Positions 5,003-27,827 of a stretch of 33,185 nucleotides of DNA are shown piece by piece. This stretch comes from an uncultured archaeon (GTDB taxonomy: Archaea; Asgardarchaeota; Lokiarchaeia; Sigyniarchaeales; SOKP01). The stretch lies in assembly GCA_964600195.1 (NCBI GenBank), contig CAZRIR010000001.1, positions 1 to 33,185 on the forward strand. The letters run 5' to 3'. Each line of letters starts with the position of its first letter. The first letter of the stretch is position 1. The notes beneath the pieces are model-generated. The model was not told the DNA's origin. It worked only from the letters and a program-made list of their open reading frames with translations, and did no database searches. A program made the translations under genes and the position numbers.

Positions 5003-5040
5003 TCGAATAATGTTCGGTTTTATAACGGAAAGTTTAAATA
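5003..5040 (+). promoter_or_regulatory. Operator-promoter module copy 1: TCGAATAATGTTCGGT, 15 nt, TTAAATA
   Basis: Palindromic CGAA-N5-TTCG core at 5003-5018 and TATA-like TTAAATA at 5034-5040. The same architecture recurs at 8274 and 22009. Confidence 0.5.
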
Positions 5041-5328: not shown

Positions 5329-6204
5329 TTAGAATTTTATTTTATGAGTCATTTTATAGGTATCAATAAAACTAGAAACGTGTAATTGAGGATAAACTCC
5401 CTCTATTGTCTTTATTTTGGTATTAATGAACTTCCATAATTCTTTTTCATTTTTCGAAACAATTTGAACGACAATATCATGATCCCCTGTTGTTGCTGCA
5501 ACTAATTGTACATCATCAAAAGAAGCGATTATATTGGCTACTGTTTCTATTTTGATGGGATCTATAGATAAACCCAATAATGCTAACGTTTTAAATCCCA
5601 CATGAAAAGGGTTAACTTGAGCATAAAATCCTTTAATAGCACCATCTTTCTGTAATTTCTGAACTCTGTTATGAATTGTGCTGGCTGCTAACCCGATTTT
5701 ATCGCTTAGTTCATTATAAGAAACTCTACAATTTTCTTGTAAGATATTTAAAATTTCTTTATCTTTTTCATCTAATGGTGAAGATTCAGTTGTTTTTGTT
5801 GTTTTTTTTATTTCTGTTTTAAACCGTTCAATGGAATAAAGGATGGAACGCATTAATAACGAAGAATTTAAATCTCCTTTTACTAGGTAGTCTTGAGCTC
5901 CTTTTTTAAGAGAATCTAAAGCCATTTCTTTCTCATCTAATCCTGTTAAAATGATAATTGGGATATTTTCATTAATTTTTAATATCGATTCAAGTGTCTT
6001 TTTTCCCTCACTATCAGGGAGATTAAGATCTAAAAGCAATATGTCAAAATGATCATTTTGTATTGCATCTAACCCATCAGAAAGTCGAGGGTGAGATTCC
6101 AATTCATAATATAAATCTTTTGACGTTTTTAATAATTCTTCTATCAAACGCACGTCGACTGGATTATCTTCTATTAAAAGAATACTGATTTTATTATTTA
6201 TCAT
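5329..6204 (-). CDS. Response-regulator receiver domain fused to an Lrp/AsnC HTH plus RAM domain
   Basis: N terminus ILLIEDNPVDVRLI...DILLLDLNLPDSEG...IIILTG is CheY-like. C terminus LDEKDKEILNILQENCRVSYNELSDKIGLAASTIHNRVQKLQKDGAIKGF followed by an AsnC-type ligand-binding (RAM) domain. Confidence 0.85.
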   Translation of the reverse strand: MINNKISILLIEDNPVDVRLIEELLKTSKDLYYELESHPRLSDGLDAIQNDHFDILLLDLNLPDSEGKKTLESILKINENIPIIILTGLDEKEMALDSLKKGAQDYLVKGDLNSSLLMRSILYSIERFKTEIKKTTKTTESSPLDEKDKEILNILQENCRVSYNELSDKIGLAASTIHNRVQKLQKDGAIKGFYAQVNPFHVGFKTLALLGLSIDPIKIETVANIIASFDDVQLVAATTGDHDIVVQIVSKNEKELWKFINTKIKTIEGVYPQLHVSSFIDTYKMTHKIKF

Positions 6205-6533
6205 TGTTATCTTACAAACACACTTTTTTTAAACTACCTAGGTAAAATCAGAATGATTTTTCATTCTATGTTATATTATATGAAAGTTAAATAAATGCCT
6301 TTCGGTCATTTGCAGTTTTTATTGAAAATTATTCGATATTAGATCAATAACACAGAAACTAAGTTGTAATCATTCGATATTTTTCTTTTGAAATTGATAA
6401 TTACAAAAATTTTTTAGGCAAATCAATTGAAGAGCAAGCTGCTTCAATGGAGGAAAGACAGGTCAAATAAATTAACTTGGTGTAGTGGCTTTAAAATTGA
6501 AAGAAAAGCTGCTAAAAAAGAGATTTAAACAAA

Positions 6534-7001
6534 TTATTCCCTATTATCAGGTAGAATTACGATTGAAAACCAGAAATTTCCAATACTTTTTACTATTTTT
6601 TCAAATTCAATAATATCTACGGGTTTTTTGATATAACAATTAGCATGAAGGTTATATGTTTTCAAAAGGTCTTCTTCCGCGTCGGAAATGCTCAAAATCA
6701 CTACGGGAATTCGCCTTAAATCGGGATCATTCTTTATTTCACTTAAAACTTCAAATCCATTTTTTTTTGGTAAATTTAAATCAAGTAAAATAAGATCTGG
6801 TTTAGATTTAACCTTATAATTCCCTTCTTTTCTAAGAAAGCGAATTGCTTCTATACCATCATTTACTACATTTAGGTTATTTGCAATTTTACTATTTTTA
6901 ATTGCAACTTGAGTTAACCGAATATCGGCGGGGTTATCTTCTACAAGTAAAATTTCAATTAATCTTGCTTTTAGATTGCTATTCATGTGTATCGAGGGCA
7001 T
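6534..7001 (-). CDS. Single-domain response regulator (CheY-like receiver)
   Basis: LLVEDNPADIRL, DLILLDLNLPKKNG, PVVILSIS and YIKKP are the receiver acidic pocket, phospho-Asp, Ser/Thr and Lys positions. Confidence 0.9.
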   Translation of the reverse strand: MPSIHMNSNLKARLIEILLVEDNPADIRLTQVAIKNSKIANNLNVVNDGIEAIRFLRKEGNYKVKSKPDLILLDLNLPKKNGFEVLSEIKNDPDLRRIPVVILSISDAEEDLLKTYNLHANCYIKKPVDIIEFEKIVKSIGNFWFSIVILPDNRE

Positions 7002-7058
7002 CTTTAGCTGTATATAATTATAAATATATTTTATCTAATTTTAATTTTTTAGTCTATC

Positions 7059-8117
7059 CTATTCGGAGATTGGGATTGAAAAGTAAAAGATCGAACCTTT
7101 TCCCATTTCAGATTTAAGCCATATTTTACCTCCATATCTCTCAACTATTTTTTTACAAATCGCTAAACCAACTCCGGATCCTGGAAATTCACTTCGAGTA
7201 TGTAAGCGTTGAAAAATTTTAAAAATTCGGTCATAATATTCCTCTTCAATACCAATACCATTGTCTTGGACTGAAAAAATCCATTCTGATTTGGTTTGAT
7301 TGGCCCCCACATGGATTTGAGGGGATTTTTGAGACACAAATTTTATTGCATTTCCAATTAGATTTTGAAATAATTGTATTATTTGAGATTTATCGACTTT
7401 TAATTCAGGTAATGGATCATTTGTGATATGTGCATCCGATTCTTCAATCGCTTCTTTTAGATTGAGTTTAACTTCTTTTAATACTTGTTCAAAATCTGTA
7501 ATTTTTAATGGTTTTTGATGAGTCGTGATTCTCGAATAATCTAAAAGGTCTCTGACCAGTTTTCTTAATCTTATTCCTCCATCTAAGATAAACGAAAGAA
7601 ATTCCTTACCTTCAGAGTCTAATTTATCAGCATGATGTTCCTCTAATAATTGTGAAAAACTTATGATTGCCCTCAGAGGTTCTTGTAAATCATGGGATGC
7701 GATATAGGCAAATTCCTGCAGTTCCATATTTGATCGTTTTAATTCTTTTAAAATATGTTTAGTTTTTTCTTCTGCCTTCAATAAATTCTCACTTAAAAAA
7801 GCAACGACAATCCCCATTATGAGTAAAAAAATAGCTCGTAAAAAATTTTCGATAATATTAAAATCAACAATATTTCCTCCATTAAAAAGAGGTAAAATGA
7901 TAATTGACAATGAAAGGATTAATGGCACAATTAAACCTTTTCTTTTCCACCAAAGACAAGACAAGATTATGGGTATGTAAAAAAAATGAGAATATACAAT
8001 CTCAATCTTTAGGATAAAAATAAAATAAATTTGTATGACAAATGATATTATGGTTAATATAATGATAATTGCTTTTTCTTCGTTTTCTTTGATCTTTACT
8101 CTAATAATATTCACCAA
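7059..8117 (-). CDS. Membrane-bound sensor histidine kinase (HisKA + HATPase_c)
   Basis: About 4 N-terminal TM helices, H-box FAYIASHDLQEPLR, N-box QNLIGNAIKF, G1 VQDNGIGI and G2 GSGVGLAICKKIV. Start is TTG 8117 or GTG 8114. Confidence 0.9.
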   Translation of the reverse strand: MVNIIRVKIKENEEKAIIIILTIISFVIQIYFIFILKIEIVYSHFFYIPIILSCLWWKRKGLIVPLILSLSIIILPLFNGGNIVDFNIIENFLRAIFLLIMGIVVAFLSENLLKAEEKTKHILKELKRSNMELQEFAYIASHDLQEPLRAIISFSQLLEEHHADKLDSEGKEFLSFILDGGIRLRKLVRDLLDYSRITTHQKPLKITDFEQVLKEVKLNLKEAIEESDAHITNDPLPELKVDKSQIIQLFQNLIGNAIKFVSQKSPQIHVGANQTKSEWIFSVQDNGIGIEEEYYDRIFKIFQRLHTRSEFPGSGVGLAICKKIVERYGGKIWLKSEMGKGSIFYFSIPISE

Positions 8118-10570: not shown

Positions 10571-10840
10571 TTATTGAGATACTTTTTTATCTTTTTCAAG
10601 ATCAATTTTTAGACTTTCAATCCATGATTCCAGATATTGAGCTTTAAATGAATTCTTATCTTTCATATTTTCAAGTTCTTGGGTTAATCCTTCAATGAAT
10701 TGTTCTTGTTTATCGATTTCAATCCATAAATATCCTTTAGAAAATTCAGATACAAACTCTGCTCTTGAATTTTTTTCCCTTTTTCCAACAAATTGATCCA
10801 TATCCATTCTTGTTAATGTTTGCATTTTTTTCTTCACCAA
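10571..10840 (-). CDS. Hypothetical coiled-coil protein (89 aa; alternative ATG at 10825)
   Basis: Open frame only. Charged helical sequence with no recognised motif. Confidence 0.35.
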   Translation of the reverse strand: MVKKKMQTLTRMDMDQFVGKREKNSRAEFVSEFSKGYLWIEIDKQEQFIEGLTQELENMKDKNSFKAQYLESWIESLKIDLEKDKKVSQ

Positions 10841-10917: not shown

Positions 10918-10944
10918 ATTTTTGTCAATTTGATAATTTTTTTT
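10918..10944 (+). repeat. Intergenic motif ATTTTTGTCAATTTGATAATTTTTTTT (copy A)
   Basis: Near-identical, with one T indel, to 11722-11749. The two copies bracket hdrC. Confidence 0.5.
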
Positions 10945-11129
10945 ATCATAAATAAATTTTAAAAAAAAAAATAGTCTTTTATTCTTCCTACGTAAAGATA
11001 TAAACTGTGAATTGAATACTATAATTCTAAAATAAGTAATTCACTTTCAAATTAAGTTTTGAACAACAATTTACAATAAATAATTGTAATTTATATGGCT
11101 TACTTGTGAAATAAGGAAAATATTGATTT

Positions 11130-12105: not shown

Positions 12106-12705
12106 ATGATTTTCTTGGTAGTTACAAAAAATCAAACAAGTATTCAAAAATCGATGATCATATATTTGGTAGGATATGATAATAATGATTCAAATTTTGA
12201 TGATTTGAAAGAGATCTTTGGATTATTTAGAGATAGAATAGTAAATTATGCCACCTTCTATAGTACTGAAGATAATCCCATAACAATTAGAGATTCACCT
12301 CTTCCACGTCTATTAAAATCACATAATGTTCCTTTTTACCGAATACAAATACCAGAAAAAACAAGAATGTTCTATAATGAAAAGATTCAAACTATAAAAA
12401 AATACATGATGAAAGATCAAGAAGAATACGATCTTTTAGTGAATAAAAATTGTGCAAGAGGTCGTTATTTGAAATTTTGGAACGAGCTATATCAGAAAGA
12501 ACTAATGGAAATTAAAAAATTCTTTGAGCTCAAAATTAAACCTGTATATATCGCAGAGTCTATATTAGAACAGCTTGAAGGAATATTGGATGAAAATCTA
12601 CTGTTATTGCATTTTGGTGAAATCCAAACCTTTGGAGAGATAATGAAAACGATTAAATTAGTGAATTCAAAAATAGACATTTCCTATTTACATTATATGA
12701 GCTAG
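12106..12705 (+). CDS. Hypothetical protein, paralogue of ORFs 21190..21801 and 20434..21168 (distantly TraB/GumN-like?)
   Basis: Aligns by eye to ORF 21190: LKSHNVPFYRIQIPE vs LTQMNIKYFQVDIPE, EEYDLL vs EEYESM, LKFWNELYQKEL vs LKNWIDMLRDEI, LLLLHFGE vs VSFLHLVQ. Confidence 0.5.
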   Translation: MIFLVVTKNQTSIQKSMIIYLVGYDNNDSNFDDLKEIFGLFRDRIVNYATFYSTEDNPITIRDSPLPRLLKSHNVPFYRIQIPEKTRMFYNEKIQTIKKYMMKDQEEYDLLVNKNCARGRYLKFWNELYQKELMEIKKFFELKIKPVYIAESILEQLEGILDENLLLLHFGEIQTFGEIMKTIKLVNSKIDISYLHYMS

Positions 12706-16765: not shown

Positions 16766-16863
16766 AAATAATTAACCAAATAATTTTAATTAATATTCTA
16801 TAATGAATATAACTATTAAAAAATTGCTCATATCTATTTAAGATGCATTCTTGACAATATTAT

Positions 16864-16879
16864 TTGTCATTTTATTTAT
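16864..16879 (+). promoter_or_regulatory. TTGTCATTTTATTTAT promoter-like element, part of a TGACAA-N6-TTGTCA palindrome (16852-16869)
   Basis: 16-nt string identical to the minus-strand reading of 21874-21889 and related to the twin promoter at 12039-12057. It points toward the 3' end of cdc48, with no plus-strand ORF downstream. Confidence 0.3.
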
Positions 16880-17036
16880 TTTAGATAATTAAATTAATTA
16901 TATTTAGTTTATAGATTATCTAAATCATTATTTTTGCTTCATTATTGCTTTAAGAAAATGTTATAAGTTCTATTCTTATTGATGTGTTTAACTAATGATT
17001 ATTTAATTAAAATATAAAAAAATTGGAGGTTGGAAA

Positions 17037-20433: not shown

Positions 20434-21168
20434 TTATTGCTCATCAAGTTCAATTTCAATATCTTTTTCGAGTTCCTTTTCGACTTCTTCAGTTTTTATG
20501 GATCTTTTAATTTTTATTTTCTCGAGATCTACATCCAATTCATTTGCTAATTTTTCAATACCATTAAAATGTCTGAGATCACATATGAATAATCCCTTGA
20601 GTTTCGTTCCATTAACATTTTTTGCAAGATTCAAGATATTCATCATCATCCAGGCTTCTCTAACATTAAATCGAACCTCATCTTCTTGAGTTTCATAGTC
20701 TTTATCCAGATATTCCTTCCATAAAATTAATCTTTGTAAAAATTCATCATTTTCAGGAACGCCTCCATTTTCTTGTATCATTTGTCGGATGACGGTTTCT
20801 AATTTTTTAATGGTTACCCTATGCTCATCTAATGCAGATGATAAATAATCTCTGGCATTTTCATCAATATCAACATGTTCAAACGGTACCTTTTTGAGTT
20901 TAAAAAGTTCCTCTAAAGGATCTACCGGATTCGGAGAATCATCCCAATTAGTAGGCTTTTCTTCCGTAGCAAAATCGGGCTTGTATTTATTAACTAATTC
21001 TTCTATGAGTTGAAGATATTCCTTTGAAATCAAGTGTAGATTCCAGACTATATCTTCTTTCACTTTTTTCGGAGCCTCAAACCACCAATCAATGGGAAAT
21101 TCACTCTCAACCATTATAAGTTTTAAGTTTTTTTTCTTGAGTGGTTTTAATTCCAATACTTTTGGCAT
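20434..21168 (-). CDS. Hypothetical protein, tandem paralogue (distantly TraB/GumN-like?)
   Basis: Starts MPKVLELKPLKKK, like the neighbouring MEVLELKPIKKR. VPFEHVDIDENARDYL, NVREAWMMMNIL and LFICDLRHFNGI resemble the DRD-, ERDxxM- and GxGHxxG-type blocks of TraB/PrgY proteins. The resemblance is weak and judged by eye. Confidence 0.45.
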   Translation of the reverse strand: MPKVLELKPLKKKNLKLIMVESEFPIDWWFEAPKKVKEDIVWNLHLISKEYLQLIEELVNKYKPDFATEEKPTNWDDSPNPVDPLEELFKLKKVPFEHVDIDENARDYLSSALDEHRVTIKKLETVIRQMIQENGGVPENDEFLQRLILWKEYLDKDYETQEDEVRFNVREAWMMMNILNLAKNVNGTKLKGLFICDLRHFNGIEKLANELDVDLEKIKIKRSIKTEEVEKELEKDIEIELDEQ

Positions 21169-21189
21169 TTTTTTTATCAACCTCTTTTT

Positions 21190-21801
21190 TTAAAATTCAA
21201 TATTAATTATATTATGTTTTTTAGTATATTGAACAACCTTAACATCTAATTCTCTCAAATTATCTGTTACTTGAGCACAGATATCCTCGCATATGTCTGC
21301 TTGGACAAGATGGAGAAAAGATACTTCTTCTGATGAAATACTTTGAGTAATTTCTAGCATTTTTTTCACGATCCATTGAGGCCTTAATGTTAAACTGATA
21401 AAATTTTCTTTATCTTGAATCTCATCCCTTAACATGTCAATCCAATTCTTTAAGCTTTCTCCTTTTAATGAATCTTTATCAATCATTGATTCATATTCTT
21501 CACATAAATCCGCATGTAATTCATTTTTTTCAACAATTTCTTGATATATATATCCCATTGCATATTCGGGAATATCTACCTGAAAATATTTAATGTTCAT
21601 TTGAGTCAATGTCTTAGCAAGCTCAGAATCATTAAATTCTTTCAGGTCAACGTTGAAATCAAGAGTTATAAAATCAACTTTCTTTTTAGTTATGAATTCT
21701 CTCAATGCAACAAGATCAAACTCATGAAAATCATCTTTATTCTTTTTGGCGACATATGCGCAGACTCTTTTTTTTATTGGTTTCAATTCCAATACTTCCA
21801 T
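21190..21801 (-). CDS. Hypothetical protein, tandem paralogue of 20434..21168 and of 12106..12705
   Basis: See the alignment blocks listed for 12106..12705. It shares the VLELKP(I/L)KK N terminus with the downstream gene. Confidence 0.5.
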   Translation of the reverse strand: MEVLELKPIKKRVCAYVAKKNKDDFHEFDLVALREFITKKKVDFITLDFNVDLKEFNDSELAKTLTQMNIKYFQVDIPEYAMGYIYQEIVEKNELHADLCEEYESMIDKDSLKGESLKNWIDMLRDEIQDKENFISLTLRPQWIVKKMLEITQSISSEEVSFLHLVQADICEDICAQVTDNLRELDVKVVQYTKKHNIINIEF

Positions 21802-21873
21802 TTAATTCTACACCTCACTTCAAACTATATTTATTGTAGATATTAATCTATGTAAAGTACCTTTAGAAGAGAT

Positions 21874-21889
21874 ATAAATAAAATGACAA
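21874..21889 (-). promoter_or_regulatory. TTGTCATTTTATTTAT promoter-like element facing ORF 21801
   Basis: The minus-strand reading is identical over 16 nt to 16864-16879. It lies about 75 nt upstream of ATG 21801. Confidence 0.4.
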
Positions 21890-22008
21890 CAATAATTTCA
21901 AAAAAATTGATAATTTTATTTTTCAAAAAAAAAATTTTAACAACATTACTGGTTAATTTGGTCTATCACGAAAAGTTTATGGTTATATTTGTTATTTATA
22001 GATTTTCA

Positions 22009-22046
22009 TCGAATAATATTCGGTAGTAAATGCACAAGCTTAAATA
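22009..22046 (+). promoter_or_regulatory. Operator-promoter module copy 3: TCGAATAATATTCGGT, 15 nt, TTAAATA
   Basis: Perfect 13-nt palindrome CGAATA-A-TATTCG inside 22009-22024, with TTAAATA at 22040-22046. It lies upstream of the wHTH-hdrA-mvhD operon. Confidence 0.5.
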
Positions 22047-22175
22047 ACCTTCGTTCTATTATAAATATGACATTTCATATTTGGTAGAAAATTTTTCAAA
22101 ATTCTTGATTTTCAAATTTTTTTTATCAAGGTGATTAACTATTCATTATTAAATGGTGGAAGGGATGGAAAACAA

Positions 22176-24722
22176 ATGGACATTTATTCAATATTATCTC
22201 ATGAGTTTAGAAGGAATATTTTGTTCCTGCTTGAAAAAGAAGGATACATTCCCTATACTGATTTAATGGATAAGCTAGGTTTAGACCAAACAGGGCAGCT
22301 CAATTTTCATTTAAGAAAACTTGGTTCTCTTATTGGAAAAGACAAAAAATCATATTTTTTAACTGAGGATGGTAAAAGAATTTTAAAAATACTCAGCATC
22401 AATAAAAGAATCTTATCAGGAGAAGAAGTAGAATATATCAATTCCAAAGGGAGTGAAATAAATAGAATAGGAGTAATTATTTGTAATTGTAATACTGAAA
22501 TCTCCAACACGATTGATATAAACGCACTAGAAAAATACATAAACAGGTTGCCAAATGTTGTTTCAGTAAAGATTTTTGAAAATTTATGTCAAGAGAAAAA
22601 TTTAGAAAAAATATCCGATTGGGTTAAAGAAAATTTTCTAAATAAAGTTGTCATTGCTGCTTGTTCTCCAAAATCGCATCAACTTGTCTTTGAACGAATT
22701 TTTGAGGAAGTAATAGATAAGTCAAACATTGAAATTGCTAATATAAGAGAACAATGTTGCTGGGTTCATCAAGGAAACGATAAACAAATTGAATCCTCTC
22801 AAGTATTGAAAAAGGCTCAATTACTAATCGAAGCTGCAGTTGAATGTTTATACCTTCAGAAAGAAGTAAAAGTTAAGAGGGTCGAAGTAGAAAAAAGTTG
22901 TGCAATATTGGGAGGGGGTATTGCGGGCATGACACTAGCATTAAATTTAGCTAGAGCCGGAATTAAAGTCTACCTAATCGAAAAAAGTCCTACTTTAGGT
23001 GGTAAGGTGGCACGATGGCATAGAATCCATAAAATGGGTGATTGTTCAATTTGTTTCATTTCAGAATTAATAGGTGAAATTGTAAAAGAAAAAAATATAG
23101 AAATTTTAACAAATTGCGAGATAACGAGCGTTTCGGGAGAAGTAGGTAATTTTTCAATAAATCTAATTAAAAAACCTCGATATATTGATGAGAAAAAATG
23201 TACTGGTTGCATGCAATGCATTGATGTATGCAGCATGGAAAAACCGAATCAATATGAGTTCAATCTCGTTAATCGGAAGATTATTTTCCTTCCTTTCCAA
23301 AACTCATATCCCTACACGCCTATTATTGAAGAAGAAGACATAAAGAATTGTCTCAATTGTAGAATTTGCGAAAGAGCATGCATGAATAATGCAATTGACT
23401 TAAATCAAAAACCAGAGGCAATTAAAATAAAAGCTGGTGTAAAGGCCATTGCTATAGGTGCCGATCTATATTCTGATCTAGAGGAATATCACCATGACCC
23501 TAAAAAAAACATCATCACTTCGGTTGAATTTGAAAGAATTTTATCATCAGATGGTCTTACTGAGGGGAAGATTTTAAAGCTTTCCGATAATAAACCGCCA
23601 AAAACAATATCAATTATTCAGGATATTGGACCTAATCGAGATCATTTAGGCCTTACGGATATAATTGCTCAAAAATATTTAAATTGTATTAGTGTTAAAA
23701 ATCCAGATAGTCAGGTAAAAGTATTTTACACCATGAATAACTTGTATCATAATCATGAAGCGATCATCAAATCTACAGATCCGAGATTCTATTATGTCAA
23801 TCAACTTGAAATAAAAAGAGAAAATGATGAAAACATCATTATCGCAGATAATAAAGAGTATCCAAGTGATTTGATTGTACTAAATCTTGATTTGATACCT
23901 AATAAGGATTTAAAAAACCTTAGAAAGACTTTAGATTTTACTCTAGATGATAACGGATTCATGAGTGAAGATACGTTAGCTTCTGGTATATTTGGTGTCG
24001 GAACAATCCTTGGTCCTTACAATTATCAATCAACAATAAATAGTGCTAATAAAGTTGCACTAGAAATCATATCACTCCTTTCAAATGATTATTTGATCTC
24101 GGAATTTACGGGAGTGGAAATCGACCATAAAAGATGTGGTCTATGTTCTTTATGCGTGAATGCTTGCCCTTATAATGCCATTACTATTGAAGATGACAAA
24201 ATCAATATTGATAAGTTTAAATGCAAGGGTTGTGGTACTTGCGTGAGTGTTTGTCCTACAAATGCGATTGAAATGAATATAGATACTGATGAAAAAATAC
24301 TTAGAAAAATAGATATTTATTCGGGGTTTAATGCCACGCCCAAAATACTAGCTTTTTGCTGTAAATCTTGTGGATATGCCGCAGCTGATGATGCCGGACT
24401 CAAAAAACAGTTTTATAAACCCAATATCTTTATCATTAGAGTTCCCTGTACGGGGCGTATTGATACACATTTTATAACAAGAGCTTTCGAAAAGGGATTT
24501 CAAGGTGTCATGATTATTGGATGCAGGAAAGATGCTTGTAGATATATCGATGGTATTCAAAAAGTACAGAAAAAAGTTCAACTTTTGAAAAAAGTCTTGG
24601 GTCCACGACTAAGCAGGAAAATCATCATTAAAAATCTAAATGCTGTCGAAGGAATCAAGTTTTCAAATTTTGTAAATAGATTTTATCATATATTAAAGGA
24701 GGAATACGAATTTGCGACTTAA
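22176..24722 (+). CDS. hdrA: Fusion protein: ArsR-like winged HTH + HdrA (Cys type) + C-terminal MvhD domain
   Basis: N terminus SILSHEFRRNILFLLEKEGYIPYTDLMDKLGLDQTGQLNFHLRKLGSLIGKDKKSYFLTEDGKRIL is a wHTH. HdrA motifs: VIICNCNTEI, IAACSPKSHQ, REQCCWVH, GGGIAGM, GDCSICF and four CxxCxxCxxxC(P) motifs. C terminus ILAFCCKSCGYAAAD...RVPCTGRID...IIGCRKDACRY is MvhD/FlpD-like. The track start is GTG 22131; ATG 22176 sits after a GGAAGGGATGG purine run. Confidence 0.85.
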   Translation: MDIYSILSHEFRRNILFLLEKEGYIPYTDLMDKLGLDQTGQLNFHLRKLGSLIGKDKKSYFLTEDGKRILKILSINKRILSGEEVEYINSKGSEINRIGVIICNCNTEISNTIDINALEKYINRLPNVVSVKIFENLCQEKNLEKISDWVKENFLNKVVIAACSPKSHQLVFERIFEEVIDKSNIEIANIREQCCWVHQGNDKQIESSQVLKKAQLLIEAAVECLYLQKEVKVKRVEVEKSCAILGGGIAGMTLALNLARAGIKVYLIEKSPTLGGKVARWHRIHKMGDCSICFISELIGEIVKEKNIEILTNCEITSVSGEVGNFSINLIKKPRYIDEKKCTGCMQCIDVCSMEKPNQYEFNLVNRKIIFLPFQNSYPYTPIIEEEDIKNCLNCRICERACMNNAIDLNQKPEAIKIKAGVKAIAIGADLYSDLEEYHHDPKKNIITSVEFERILSSDGLTEGKILKLSDNKPPKTISIIQDIGPNRDHLGLTDIIAQKYLNCISVKNPDSQVKVFYTMNNLYHNHEAIIKSTDPRFYYVNQLEIKRENDENIIIADNKEYPSDLIVLNLDLIPNKDLKNLRKTLDFTLDDNGFMSEDTLASGIFGVGTILGPYNYQSTINSANKVALEIISLLSNDYLISEFTGVEIDHKRCGLCSLCVNACPYNAITIEDDKINIDKFKCKGCGTCVSVCPTNAIEMNIDTDEKILRKIDIYSGFNATPKILAFCCKSCGYAAADDAGLKKQFYKPNIFIIRVPCTGRIDTHFITRAFEKGFQGVMIIGCRKDACRYIDGIQKVQKKVQLLKKVLGPRLSRKIIIKNLNAVEGIKFSNFVNRFYHILKEEYEFAT

Positions 24723-25470
24723 ATTTCTCATAACTTCATTGACTTCATGTAGTGGTTGCATTTCTTCCTTGATTTCATTAGATATTTTCTCTCAATTCCT
24801 TGAAAGGACTGAGATCTCATATTTCCCATTCATGTCAGATAAAATTAATATAGAACCATGTGATATAGCCCTTATAGAGGGTTGTGTTTCGGAGGAAGCA
24901 CAAATTGATTATCTTAAAGATATTAGAATCTCAGCAAAAAAAGTATATGCGTTAGGAACCTGCGCCGCTTTTGGAGGTATTTTGAGCCTTTCAAGAAAGA
25001 AGAGGGCCTCACCATTATCAGATTATGTTGAAATAGATGGAATCATTCCTGGTTGTCCTCCCCCTAATAAACTGCTTGGAAATTGCCTGATTAGATTACT
25101 TGAAAGAAAAAATATTGAATTATCACCTAAAAATCTTTGTAACGATTGCCCTTATAAAATAACTTTTAATATTAAACCAGAAATCGAAATCAAAAAAATT
25201 TTACCCCAAAATAGTGAATTTAACACGGGAGACGATGAACAAACTTGTTTCTTAAATAGGGGTATCATGTGCATGGGACCCATTACCAGAGAAGGTTGTG
25301 ATCATGAATGTATAAAACGAGGAATTCCATGTGAAGGATGCATGGGTCCAGTTTCTAAAGATTTCACCTCAAATTTAGTTAATTATTTAAGTCTATTTCA
25401 TGTTGTAAAAGATTTGAAAAAATATTCTGGAATTTTCTATCGATTTTCAAAACCAAGGATTTGGAGGTAG
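24712..25470 (+). CDS. mvhG: [NiFe] hydrogenase small subunit, Mvh (group 3c-like) type, no signal peptide
   Basis: SCSGC, GTCAAFGG and PGCPP proximal-cluster motifs plus Cys-rich distal motifs (CNDCPYK, CMGPITREGCDHEC, PCEGCMGP). TTG start after GGAGG, overlapping the upstream gene by 11 nt. Confidence 0.85.
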   Translation: MRLKFLITSLTSCSGCISSLISLDIFSQFLERTEISYFPFMSDKINIEPCDIALIEGCVSEEAQIDYLKDIRISAKKVYALGTCAAFGGILSLSRKKRASPLSDYVEIDGIIPGCPPPNKLLGNCLIRLLERKNIELSPKNLCNDCPYKITFNIKPEIEIKKILPQNSEFNTGDDEQTCFLNRGIMCMGPITREGCDHECIKRGIPCEGCMGPVSKDFTSNLVNYLSLFHVVKDLKKYSGIFYRFSKPRIWR

Positions 25471-25474
25471 GCAG

Positions 25475-26773
25475 ATGCAAAAAGTTGTAGAAGTATGCAC
25501 GAGAGTGGAGGGTCATGGAAGTTTAGATATATTTATAAAGGATGATAATGTATCTCACGTAGAATTCAAGATAGGTCCGTATAGAGATTTTGAAAACATG
25601 TTAATTGGAAAAAAAATTGAAGATGTTCCCAGAATAATTTCAAGAGTGTGTGGCTTGTGTCATGCTTCTCAAAGTATAGTCAGCTGTAAGACTATTGAAA
25701 CAATGTATAATATTAAACCTCACATGCAATCTATTATTGTAAGACGTCTTTTAATGACAGGTGAACTTATAAAATCCCATTTGATGCATTATTTCTTTCA
25801 ATCATTTCCAGATCTTCTAGAAATTTTTAATATTAATGAAAAAGTTCTAAATTTAAATGATCTATTGAAATATAATAGCAATTTAACATCAAATATCTTC
25901 GATCTGATAAAAGTTGGAAATGAAATAAATAATCTTTTTGGAGGTCGTTCCGTGCATTTAATAACACCATTACCCGGAGGAATTATTTTTAGGCCTTCAC
26001 AAAAATCTATTAAAATTGCTCAAAAACTATTCGAAAAAGCCTCATTTTTACTAGAAATGATTATCGAAGATTTTTCCAATATTTTTTCAAATTTTACTCC
26101 TCCTGAAGATTATTCACTTTCTAAAGCATACTTTTTAGCATTAAACAATAACAAGGTCTATGATCGTTATGAAGGGGTTCTCACTATAAAAAAAAATTCT
26201 AATTACAATGATTTTCACGAAACAGAATACAAATCTTATTTCAATAAAGATCTAAATCTTCATGGAATTGATTTTGTTAACCAAAACGGTGAAAATTGCT
26301 TAGTTGGACCACTTGCAAGAAATAATATAGTTGAAAATTATGGAGTTGAGCAAATAACATCATATCTCAACTTATTTCAAAAATCTTGGAAAAATAACCT
26401 CTTGTATGCCAATTTTTTAAGATTAATTGAGGTATATTGTGAAGTAATCAAGTCATTAGATTTATTGAATGACCAGGTAATAAAGAATGAATACCCCCTT
26501 CCAGAATTAGTAAATATCAAAAATAATATTGGTATAGCCGTTGTTGATGCACCTAGAGGAACATTAATCCACCAATATCGCGTAAATGATAGAAAAACTG
26601 TTGAAGAAGCAAAACTTTTCATTGCTACAGAGATGAATCTTCCGATTATCAATCAAATGATCACGGATTATGCCAAAAAACTCTATTTGAAGAAAGACAT
26701 ATCATTTGTCAAGAAAAATGTTCAAAAGATGATTAGAGCATTCGATCCATGCATAGCATGTGCAACACATTAA
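25475..26773 (+). CDS. mvhA: [NiFe] hydrogenase large subunit, Mvh type
   Basis: N-terminal RVEGHG and RVCGLC, C-terminal DPCIACATH nickel-ligand motif. The ORF stops immediately after that His. Confidence 0.9.
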   Translation: MQKVVEVCTRVEGHGSLDIFIKDDNVSHVEFKIGPYRDFENMLIGKKIEDVPRIISRVCGLCHASQSIVSCKTIETMYNIKPHMQSIIVRRLLMTGELIKSHLMHYFFQSFPDLLEIFNINEKVLNLNDLLKYNSNLTSNIFDLIKVGNEINNLFGGRSVHLITPLPGGIIFRPSQKSIKIAQKLFEKASFLLEMIIEDFSNIFSNFTPPEDYSLSKAYFLALNNNKVYDRYEGVLTIKKNSNYNDFHETEYKSYFNKDLNLHGIDFVNQNGENCLVGPLARNNIVENYGVEQITSYLNLFQKSWKNNLLYANFLRLIEVYCEVIKSLDLLNDQVIKNEYPLPELVNIKNNIGIAVVDAPRGTLIHQYRVNDRKTVEEAKLFIATEMNLPIINQMITDYAKKLYLKKDISFVKKNVQKMIRAFDPCIACATH

Positions 26774-26804
26774 GCATCAATTAAAAAATAAGGAGATTGG
26801 TTCT

Positions 26805-27827
26805 ATGAAAATACTCACTGAAAATGAAAGAAGAATCATCCAAGCAGAACAATTATGCGAAGTTTTTTTATTATATTTTGATGAAAAATTAGGTCATATA
26901 CCAATTTTAGTGAGTCCTGAGGATGTCATGAAAAAAAATAAAGAAACGATGCAAATTCTCCGTATTCATTCCATTTGGTTCTTAGATCTAAGTGATAAGA
27001 CATCTCTTGATCGCGTGGATTTAGAATATGGAGGGAAAATGTACTTTGCAAAAAAATTTCTAGTTCCTTCTTTTAGAAATAAAAGAAGAGCTGGTTCAGA
27101 AGAGGTTAAATTTGAAACGATAGTCTTAATTTTAGCACTCCCCATAGAAATGGATATTTTCGGGGGAGCTTTACTCGGGGAAATGGCTGAGAGAATCGCC
27201 AAACACTTTAAATTTTATCTTTCTGACGTGATTGAAGCAGAAATAGAAAAATTGAATGTAATTATAAAGCCAAACGCTAAATATTTAATTGAAAAGGGAG
27301 AAAAAATTAAAAAAAGAATAAGGATGCTCATTAAAAACACCTGCTCCCAATATTTTCAATCCGTAATAAAAAAAACAGATACGACCATCTTAAAAATTCA
27401 AAAAGCAATTTCCTACTTGTCGTTAAAAGGGGTGCCAGTGAGTTATATAGTTAGCAATAACAAAAATATTGGATTTTCTAACATAAAATTATTTGATCAA
27501 AAGACTACCCATCATCCTAACAGTAAAAATGAAATCCCTTTTCAAATATCTAATATCAATACCATTGAAAATAGTCAAGAGGTCGAAATATCCGTTAAAA
27601 ATCAAACTAACAAAGAATTTAAAGATCTATTGATAAAAATAACTTCATTATACGAGTTTTTTGAACAAGTTATTCTTTACGATAAAATTGAACTTTGGTT
27701 TCCAGAGGAAGAAATTCTTTTCATCCTTCCTGAGATGATGATGGAAAATGAATATATTTTATATTTATTAGAGCAAAATCAAAAAAAAGTCATTTTTCAA
27801 AAAAAAATTAAACTACTTAAAGAATAA
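26805..27827 (+). CDS. Hypothetical protein (340 aa), last gene of the hdrA-mvhDGA operon
   Basis: ATG 26805 lies 9 nt after AAGGAG, 31 nt downstream of mvhA. It has no Cys clusters. The N-terminal ~150 aa show an alternating beta/alpha pattern that could be longin/roadblock-like; this is a guess by eye. Confidence 0.55.
   Translation: MKILTENERRIIQAEQLCEVFLLYFDEKLGHIPILVSPEDVMKKNKETMQILRIHSIWFLDLSDKTSLDRVDLEYGGKMYFAKKFLVPSFRNKRRAGSEEVKFETIVLILALPIEMDIFGGALLGEMAERIAKHFKFYLSDVIEAEIEKLNVIIKPNAKYLIEKGEKIKKRIRMLIKNTCSQYFQSVIKKTDTTILKIQKAISYLSLKGVPVSYIVSNNKNIGFSNIKLFDQKTTHHPNSKNEIPFQISNINTIENSQEVEISVKNQTNKEFKDLLIKITSLYEFFEQVILYDKIELWFPEEEILFILPEMMMENEYILYLLEQNQKKVIFQKKIKLLKE

Follow-up and report, generated by a model that had tools for sequence, protein, structure and literature searches.

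A winged helix fused to the HdrA–MvhD flavoprotein of an Asgard [NiFe] hydrogenase operon, and a conserved palindrome that it may bind

We analyzed a 33,185-nucleotide stretch of DNA from an uncultured Asgard archaeon of the class Lokiarchaeia (positions 1–33,185 of contig CAZRIR010000001.1, assembly GCA_964600195.1; the whole stretch is referred to below as the window), in which a [NiFe] hydrogenase operon is headed by a gene for one long polypeptide composed of an ArsR-type winged helix-turn-helix (wHTH), an HdrA-like core and an MvhD-like domain. The results of profile searches, structure prediction, codon comparison and homologue analysis revealed that this triple fusion is real, translated and conserved, and that it is neither an assembly nor a start-codon artefact. 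Across the phylum, the fused gene is preceded by an 18-bp palindrome, TGAYAA-N6-TTRTCA. We propose, with a probability that we put at roughly 0.5, that the protein is an autoregulating enzyme with a DNA-binding domain of its own (a trigger enzyme), and that it binds this palindrome. An earlier note on the same DNA had already raised the idea of an autoregulator; this is still the best reading, but the operator suggested there (CGAA-N5-TTCG) has to be replaced by TGAYAA-N6-TTRTCA.

A winged helix joined to HdrA and MvhD

The ORF (open reading frame) described in the earlier note, 22131–24722 (+), was confirmed, but not its GTG start at 22131. Judged from the homologues, the true start is the ATG at 22176, located 15 codons further 3′, because (i) the N terminus MDIYSIL and a length of 848–851 amino acids (aa) are shared by nearly all of approx. 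120 homologues, (ii) a ribosome-binding stretch (GGTGGAAGGGATGG, 22155–22168) lies 5′ of this ATG and is kept in the closest relative (locus L083), and (iii) the gene of that relative is called from the same start position. In the winged-helix region, the codons that differ between the window and L083 comprise 30 synonymous and 3 nonsynonymous changes, and codon position 3 holds 32 of the 37 base differences. This codon-level selection shows that the region is translated and under purifying selection, which, together with the start at 22176, contradicts the possibility that translation begins 3′ of the wHTH. The parts of the fused gene are as follows.

22176–24722 (+): wHTH-HdrA-MvhD fusion gene, 848 aa (homologue lengths and N termini, conserved ribosome-binding stretch)
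22176–22424 (+): ArsR-type winged helix-turn-helix (DUF7347), residues 1–83 (Pfam, AlphaFold2, Foldseek)
22290–22331 (+): recognition helix, residues 39–52, motif TGQLNFHL(R/K)KL
22425–22463 (+): linker, residues 84–96 (sequence conserved, predicted confidence low)
22464–24326 (+): HdrA-like core, residues 97–717 (NCBIfam HdrA2, alignment of solved HdrA chains)
23607–23675 (+): place of the canonical HA4 motif (CxGxRD-x6-8-CSxxCC), here reading IIQDIGPNRD...LTDIIAQ
24336–24698 (+): MvhD/FlpD domain, residues 721–841 (Pfam PF02662)

The ArsR-like wHTH that had been read at the N terminus of HdrA was found both by profile and by fold. Residues 2–71 match the Pfam family DUF7347 (PF24038), which belongs to the HTH_20 clan, with 42.5 bits against a cut-off of 27.6 (47.8 bits in the genome search), and there is a weak match to HTH_24. 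The AlphaFold2 model of residues 1–100 has a predicted local distance difference test (pLDDT) score of 86.5, with values of 95–97 across residues 11–70. The secondary structure assigned to the model by DSSP (helices 3–7, 10–22, 27–33, 39–52 and 64–80; strands 53–56 and 59–62) follows the order a1-a2-a3-aR-b1-b2-a5 that is expected of an ArsR-type winged helix. In Foldseek, the top matches are without exception winged-helix transcription factors (YodB, QsrR, HxlR, NolR on DNA, CadC and HlyU), with template modelling (TM) scores of 0.6–0.67 to YodB, QsrR, CadC and NolR.

The fused domain has stayed near the consensus of its family: RR, TG.LN(Y/F)HLK.L and K..Y.LT..G are retained, and the recognition helix keeps T39, G40, L42, N43 and H45 without exception, also in fusions of only 34–39% identity. 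By these criteria, its DNA-binding winged helix appears intact. In the full-length model, residues 84–93 of the linker have pLDDT values below 50, and for this reason no docking of the domain onto the protein body is predicted. A two-copy complex prediction for residues 1–100, made with an alignment, reached a score of 0.31 against a mark of 0.42, which speaks neither for nor against dimerisation.

The HdrA-like core is built of an N-terminal cluster domain, a flavin adenine dinucleotide (FAD) domain of thioredoxin-reductase-like fold with an inserted ferredoxin, and a C-terminal ferredoxin. It is covered by a match to NCBIfam HdrA2 spanning residues 97–842 (E 8.7e-171; 569.8 bits, under the cut-off of 1100), while the HdrA equivalogs of the same database score 372–419 bits (under their cut-offs of 1300–1400). 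Solved HdrA chains align from residues 94–97 of the window protein onwards (phmmer E 3e-113). Structural comparison by VIA-align gave Z 44.2 and a root-mean-square deviation of 3.5 over 603 residues with 8RVU_A, and Z 43.9 with 5ODC_A, to which model residues 94–717 were aligned. Since every solved HdrA starts at the position of residues 94–97, the winged helix is an addition to the known protein. The GxGxxG Rossmann motif for FAD binding is present (Pfam NAD_binding_8 at residues 244–283), and its glycines 246, 247, 248 and 251 are invariant in 63 homologues.

At the C terminus, residues 724–841 match PF02662 (FlpD/MvhD) at near full profile length (positions 1–120 of 123; E 6.5e-32, 110.6 bits vs. 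a cut-off of 22.3), which upholds the fused MvhD-like domain of the earlier note. The domain aligns to the solved chains 5odc_D and 8rvu_F, and cysteines 729, 732, 758, 783 and 788, attributed to a [2Fe-2S] cluster, are conserved.

Several searches delimited the distribution of the fusion. A word-indexed search with residues 1–130 returned 160 proteins; among the matches listed, all carry DUF7347 and are named as Promethearchaeota, Loki-, Thor-, Hel-, Hod-, Hermod- or Odinarchaeota. Scanning species-representative genomes gave 18 loci that match residues 1–240 in full, all of them from Promethearchaeota or an "uncultured archaeon", and the HdrA loci of bacteria, Thermoplasmatales, Methanocellales and Archaeoglobaceae match only from about residue 90. 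The domain was absent from every non-Asgard HdrA locus fetched, and in a comparison of fused with split arrangements a hidden Markov model of the domain found no match within 6 kb of 62 non-Asgard hdrA loci. Within the phylum, the fusion junction (residues 1 to ~139, within open frames mostly of 845–900 aa) was detected at 72 places in 71 of the 301 sampled genomes, i.e. in about a quarter of them, in seven families and at identities down to 36–40%. In public annotation these proteins appear as "hydrogenase iron-sulfur subunit" or "heterodisulfide reductase subunit A". The literature searched on winged helices in HdrA and on group 3c hydrogenases of Asgard archaea yielded no paper describing the fusion, in agreement with the statement in the earlier note that a DNA-binding-type domain on HdrA was not recognised as described.

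DUF7347 also occurs apart from HdrA. An exhaustive profile-free search with the domain alone gave 581 representative proteins; among the matches listed, only three are of HdrA length, the others being proteins of 90–470 aa with the domain at the N terminus. Approximately two thirds of the 146 nearest family representatives have predicted membrane segments, which suggests that DUF7347 is mostly a tethered winged helix. Stand-alone members that share the helix motif of the fusion are encoded in the window's own genome and in other families. The only other DUF7347 protein of this genome (165 aa; locus L002, 1435–1932, contig C150) has hydrophobic C-terminal segments, and no comparable palindrome was found in the region upstream of its gene. 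A further DUF7347 protein of 147 aa (P0122; locus L086, 5001–5444), 49% identical and placed in the same synteny approx. 230 nt from a contig end, was considered as a stand-alone regulator and rejected: its synteny and its closeness to the contig end indicate that it is probably a truncated or broken fused hdrA.

The TGAYAA-N6-TTRTCA palindrome

The palindrome conserved 5′ of the fused gene (duplex consensus TGACAATAATATTTGTCA) usually comes 2–5 nt after a TTTAWATA box, and often another TTGTCAAAA half-site follows it. Allowing at most one mismatch, we counted 27 copies in twenty 320-nt hdrA upstream regions and 34 copies in the remaining 254 kb of locus sequence, a 31-fold difference in density. 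The reversed control pattern had no copy, shuffled upstream regions contained 0.32 copies on average (maximum 2), and in a scan of spacer lengths the 27 copies were obtained with 6 nt, every other spacer giving 5 or fewer. The operator is present within 320 nt 5′ of the fused gene in 17 of the 20 loci, plus four further families; the families concerned are f1, f3, f21, f9 and f14, and upstream regions of 40–44% GC are among them. Its position is −94 to −97 in f21, −143 in f9 (upstream region of 43% GC) and −44 to −59 in f14. Family f18 has half-sites only, and the divergent fusion P0174, whose contig contains only 51 nt of intergenic DNA, has no recognisable operator. A motif search 5′ of the fused genes retrieved no other conserved palindrome. 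These comparisons indicate that the operator is real, specific and conserved together with the fusion.

The following sites were localized in the window.

21872–21925 (+): distal promoter-like module, composed of the next three elements
21872–21883 (+): TATA-like box, ATATAAATAAAA
21884–21901 (+): degenerate operator behind this box, TGACAA-CAATAA-TTTCAA
21908–21925 (+): operator TGATAATTTTATTTTTCA, one mismatch to TGAYAA-N6-TTRTCA, at −268
16852–16869 (−): exact operator copy TGACAAATAATATTGTCA, directly behind a TATA-like box
10931–10948 (−): exact operator copy TGATAAAAAAAATTATCA, with an adjacent second copy of N9 spacing

The counterpart of the TGATAATTTTATTTTTCA site in L083 is a perfect match to the consensus. 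The copy TGACAAATAATATTGTCA is located 87 nt 5′ of an AMP-binding (acyl-CoA synthetase-like) gene, and a similarly placed copy exists in 9 related loci; the copy TGATAAAAAAAATTATCA is located approx. 105 nt 5′ of a small ORF of ~84 aa (10575–10826). The 16-mer ATAAATAAAATGACAA, which contains a TATA-like box and a left half-site, is identical at 21872–21889 and 16866–16881, and this sharing suggests a duplicated promoter cassette.

The two exact copies at 16852 and 10931, both in the window, are the only ones in the 2.55-Mb assembly. In five related genomes most exact copies fall inside ORFs, and those that are clearly intergenic mostly lie in the gap between hdrA and the unnamed divergent gene beside it, or 5′ of paralogues of that gene. 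From this pattern the regulon looks small and local. Genome-wide counts of exact copies in the 301 genomes were not used: a modest excess over the reversed control was also seen in fusion-free families, and raw counts do not discriminate. In the three genomes examined from the fusion-free family f2, 13 of the 16 exact copies fall inside ORFs and none adjoins an hdr gene.

The hydrogenase operon, its neighbours and the HA4 motif

The genes that follow the fusion are arranged as the earlier note had described, with mvhG reached by an 11-nt overlap (also called in L083) and mvhA after a gap of 4 nt.

24712–25470 (+): mvhG-like [NiFe] hydrogenase small subunit, 11-nt overlap with the fusion gene
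25475–26773 (+): mvhA-like [NiFe] hydrogenase large subunit, 4 nt after mvhG
26760–27827 (+): conserved operon-end protein, start codon uncertain, no Pfam or NCBIfam match

Both hydrogenase genes are located 3′ of the fused gene in 16 of the 18 related loci; of the other two, L003 stops with the fused gene and L007 has mvhA only. The gene order is kept even by the divergent fusions, P0166 being followed by mvhG and mvhA, and P0174 by mvhG at the contig end. The operon-end protein (approx. 340–355 aa) has similarly placed homologues in 8 of the 18 loci. No hdrB or hdrC gene follows the fused gene in any of these loci or in the window's operon; the sole hdrC-like gene of the window adjoins a selenocysteine HdrA paralogue.

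The best match of the large subunit in the Protein Data Bank (PDB) is 5odc_F MvhA (E 1.8e-49). The NCBIfam models ShyA (161.5 bits) and VhuA (158.5 bits) are tied, both far under their cut-offs, and all strong hydrogenase matches belong to the cytosolic group 3 (Mvh, NAD-reducing hydrogenase, sulfhydrogenase and Frh), with no group 2 affiliation. The MvhA sequence ends with the His of DPCIACATH, directly followed by the stop codon (26741–26773). Since the methanogen chains run further (5odc_F and 9sw2_F are 24–25 residues longer), a protease-cleaved tail is not encoded here.

Alignment of residues 400–560 to 5ODC_A, 8RVV_A and 8RVU_a revealed that all four cysteines of the HA4 motif are absent from the fusion protein, where 5ODC_A has IQCVGSRD...YCSNVCC. 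The stretch from position 402 to 654 lacks a conserved cysteine in the set of 63 fused homologues, and the f1-type fusions have none at the HA4 site. The other cluster cysteines (N-terminal cluster domain, both ferredoxin domains and MvhD) are conserved, as is the cysteine pair 290/293. HA4 carries the high-potential electron from FAD towards HdrB (PMC13580544). Because the HA4 cysteines are lost and MvhA has no C-terminal tail, the complex in the window's lineage probably does not perform canonical heterodisulfide-coupled bifurcation; the term "flavin-based bifurcating subunit" used in the earlier note is therefore too strong. The divergent fusions P0166 and P0174 retain the HA4 motif (C...CSxxCC); the loss is thus a property of the Lokiarchaeia-type fused HdrA, and the winged-helix fusion is the older of the two events.

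In the 18 related loci, which fall into two gene-order types, no DNA-binding gene besides the fusion is conserved. In the second type (L012, L019 and L020), a selenocysteine-type hdrA is the divergent neighbour, and genes for a histidine kinase and a response-regulator-Lrp protein directly follow mvhA; the corresponding pair of the window lies at 5329–8117, i.e. 14–17 kb from the fusion locus.

A protein family without a Pfam match is represented in the window by members of 203, 248 and 199 aa and by the small ORF of ~84 aa, which resembles their N-terminal part (20434–21801, minus strand; 12106–12705, plus strand; 10575–10826, minus strand). In 11 of the 18 related loci it lies next to the fused hdrA, in divergent orientation. 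This unnamed family looks co-regulated with the hydrogenase operon, because its promoters carry TGAYAA-N6-TTRTCA.

A self-regulating enzyme, its alternatives and known systems

In the mechanism that we propose, the HdrA-MvhD flavoprotein would form a complex with the MvhG/MvhA [NiFe] hydrogenase, and its N-terminal winged helix would bind TGAYAA-N6-TTRTCA. Binding as a pair is probable because solved HdrA complexes contain an HdrA dimer; the two winged helices of such a dimer would each read one half-site, the half-site centres being spaced by 12 bp. Archaeal repressors commonly block polymerase recruitment by binding just behind the TATA box. As the palindrome usually sits just behind the TATA box and over the expected transcription start, its occupancy would block RNA polymerase and repress the hdrA-mvh operon together with a few linked genes. 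The winged helix would be tethered to the N-terminal cluster domain of HdrA, and its DNA binding would be set by redox state, H2 or assembly state. In methanogen complexes, the HdrA N-terminal domain and MvhD form a mobile arm that swings during catalysis, next to the hydrogenase (PMC13580544); since the winged helix hangs on this arm, redox or assembly state could gate its binding to DNA. This logic has an archaeal precedent in RbkR, a riboflavin kinase joined to a winged helix, which has its own gene within its regulon (PMC5397151).

Comparison of the loci favours the HdrA winged helix as the binder of the operator, because the locus has no other conserved DNA-binding gene, the domain is consensus-like and its docking onto the body is not predicted, and also because five genomes of families f9, f14 and f21 that keep the operator yielded no full-length response-regulator-Lrp protein.

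Several observations weigh against this proposal. In Asgard metatranscriptomes, the hdr and hydrogenase genes rank near the top of all metabolic genes by transcription (PMC11291895), and so abundant an enzyme would be an unusual repressor. The domain and the linker are conserved like the catalytic core (mean column identity of 75% in both), and by this measure conservation of the whole domain exceeds what a DNA-reading face alone would need. The operator proximal to hdrA has been lost in the window, where only TGATAATTTTATTTTTCA and the degenerate copy at 21884 remain in the shared upstream region. Each genome encodes many Lrp-type proteins and some stand-alone DUF7347 paralogues, any of which may be the binder instead. 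We found no characterised member of DUF7347 and no paper that mentions it, so that the function of the family is itself one that we infer; in approximately two thirds of its nearest relatives, the domain is joined to predicted membrane segments. In BamF, which is part of a related machine of the HdrA type, the winged helix docks on BamI (bioRxiv 10.64898/2026.04.10.717634).

This last case leads to the alternative that survives best, although we regard it as somewhat unlikely: the winged helix would be a structural protein-docking module without DNA binding, and another factor would read the operator. As such a module, it would hold a partner (the operon-end protein, the unnamed neighbour family, a ferredoxin or another redox module) or stabilise the HdrA dimer or the mobile arm. 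BamF, an MvhD-type adaptor of class II benzoyl-CoA reductase, provides an example of a wHTH that interfaces with a partner protein, BamI (bioRxiv 10.64898/2026.04.10.717634). The conservation of domain and linker, equal to that of the enzyme core, fits docking, and the domain sits on the HdrA N-terminal domain, in the mobile arm beside the hydrogenase (PMC13580544). Its relatives, moreover, regularly occur in fusions with modules that have no regulatory role, e.g. membrane segments. In contrast, the full-length model leaves the domain unpacked against the body, the recognition helix and the basic wing residues hold the family consensus with no drift, and docking would leave a locus-restricted, phylum-wide operator without a locally encoded binder.

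A more far-reaching form of the self-regulating enzyme, which we consider unlikely, makes the assembly MvhA-MvhG-(wHTH-HdrA-MvhD) a direct DNA-binding sensor of H2 or redox state that works without a kinase or a second messenger. Reduction of its flavin and clusters by H2-derived electrons would make the mobile arm move and thereby switch operator binding. In the window's lineage the complex may have turned mainly into a sensor, the HA4 route to HdrBC being lost and the large subunit being tail-less as in regulatory hydrogenases.

It is also conceivable, at distinctly low probability, that the winged helix binds DNA elsewhere and that TGAYAA-N6-TTRTCA belongs to another regulator, i.e. an Lrp/AsnC protein, the response-regulator-Lrp protein or a stand-alone DUF7347 paralogue. 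Such regulators are at hand: the kinase and response-regulator-Lrp genes are located next to mvhA in L012, L019 and L020, each genome has around ten Lrp-type matches, and the stand-alone DUF7347 proteins share the helix motif. The response-regulator-Lrp protein is, however, the one not found in the five operator-keeping genomes, and the 12-bp distance between half-site centres is wider than in archaeal Lrp palindromes, which typically measure 13–15 bp; nor did the motif search offer an alternative conserved palindrome 5′ of the fused genes.

Finally, the palindrome that had been taken for the operator in the earlier note was localized as follows.

22010–22046 (+): palindrome CGAATAATATTCG (22010–22022), then TTAAATA (22040–22046)

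This palindrome is real: with sister copies at 5004 and 8275 it occurs three times in the window (0.35 expected; none of 100 shuffles reached 3), it precedes the TTAAATA box, and it is kept in the closest relatives. It is conserved, however, only in the window's genus (L083 and L084); 18 other species, whose recognition helix TGQLNFHLKKL is invariant, have no copy 5′ of hdrA or elsewhere in the loci fetched, and its sister sites adjoin two-component genes and precede metVF, which makes CGAA-N5-TTCG a very improbable target of the HdrA winged helix.

Asgard hydrogen metabolism is central to syntrophy models of the origin of eukaryotes. Should the winged helix bind the operator, we would have here, to our knowledge, the first hydrogenase or HdrA-type redox machine that reads its own state directly onto DNA, and a small regulon, consisting of the hydrogenase operon and the accompanying unnamed protein family, would be defined. 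A small domain and an operator known to base resolution make the idea readily testable. Genome-based reconstructions annotate the gene as part of a bifurcating "MvhADG-HdrABC", but with HA4 lost, this lineage probably cannot reduce a heterodisulfide by the known route.

Among known systems, the MvhAGD-HdrABC complex of methanogens (5ODC, 8RVU, 9SW2) is the nearest for the enzyme part. The HdrA fold is alike over residues 94–717 (Z 44, 30–32% identity), the adjacency of mvhG and mvhA is shared, and HdrA-MvhD fusions of the HdrA2 type likewise carry MvhD at the C terminus. In contrast, none of the solved HdrAs has the N-terminal winged helix of ~95 residues, and the window lacks the HA4 cysteines, hdrB and hdrC in the operon, the MvhA C-terminal extension and mvhB, the polyferredoxin gene that in methanogens holds the operon-end position, here occupied by the protein without a family match. 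The scores to HdrA and HdrA2 are below the curated NCBIfam cut-offs.

As regards enzymes with a DNA-binding domain, PutA and BirA are trigger enzymes; the DNA-binding domain of PutA is a ribbon-helix-helix, and the redox state of its flavin sets the regulation, which makes PutA a further precedent for the logic proposed here. PutA, BirA and RbkR (PMC5397151) combine enzyme and DNA-binding domain in one polypeptide, as seen here, and RbkR and trigger enzymes share the palindromic operator in the promoter of their own gene. The present case differs in that the enzyme part is a subunit of a multi-subunit, many-cluster [NiFe] hydrogenase complex, and in that DNA binding and any dependence on an effector are predictions. 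BamF shares the presence of a winged helix-turn-helix within an HdrA/MvhD-type bifurcating machine, but its motif is in the MvhD-like adaptor and contacts BamI, whereas here it is at the HdrA N terminus, on a linker of low confidence, and is accompanied by an operator conserved together with it.

Phr, a repressor of archaea, binds a palindrome that overlaps the point at which transcription of the phr gene begins. Phr of Pyrococcus furiosus (2P4W) is the best, albeit weak, PDB sequence match to the domain (E 0.13), and the ArsR/HxlR-type redox sensors YodB and QsrR are its best fold matches (TM 0.67); all three are free-standing regulators, alike only at the level of the fold, in contrast to the enzyme fusion described here. 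The sensor hydrogenases HoxBC/HupUV, which belong to group 2b and signal via a histidine kinase and a response regulator (HoxJ-HoxA), also have a large subunit without a C-terminal extension, and a wiring of hydrogenase to transcription is what we propose here too. In the Asgard system, however, the best matches are to group 3, and the DNA-binding domain would belong to the hydrogenase complex itself.

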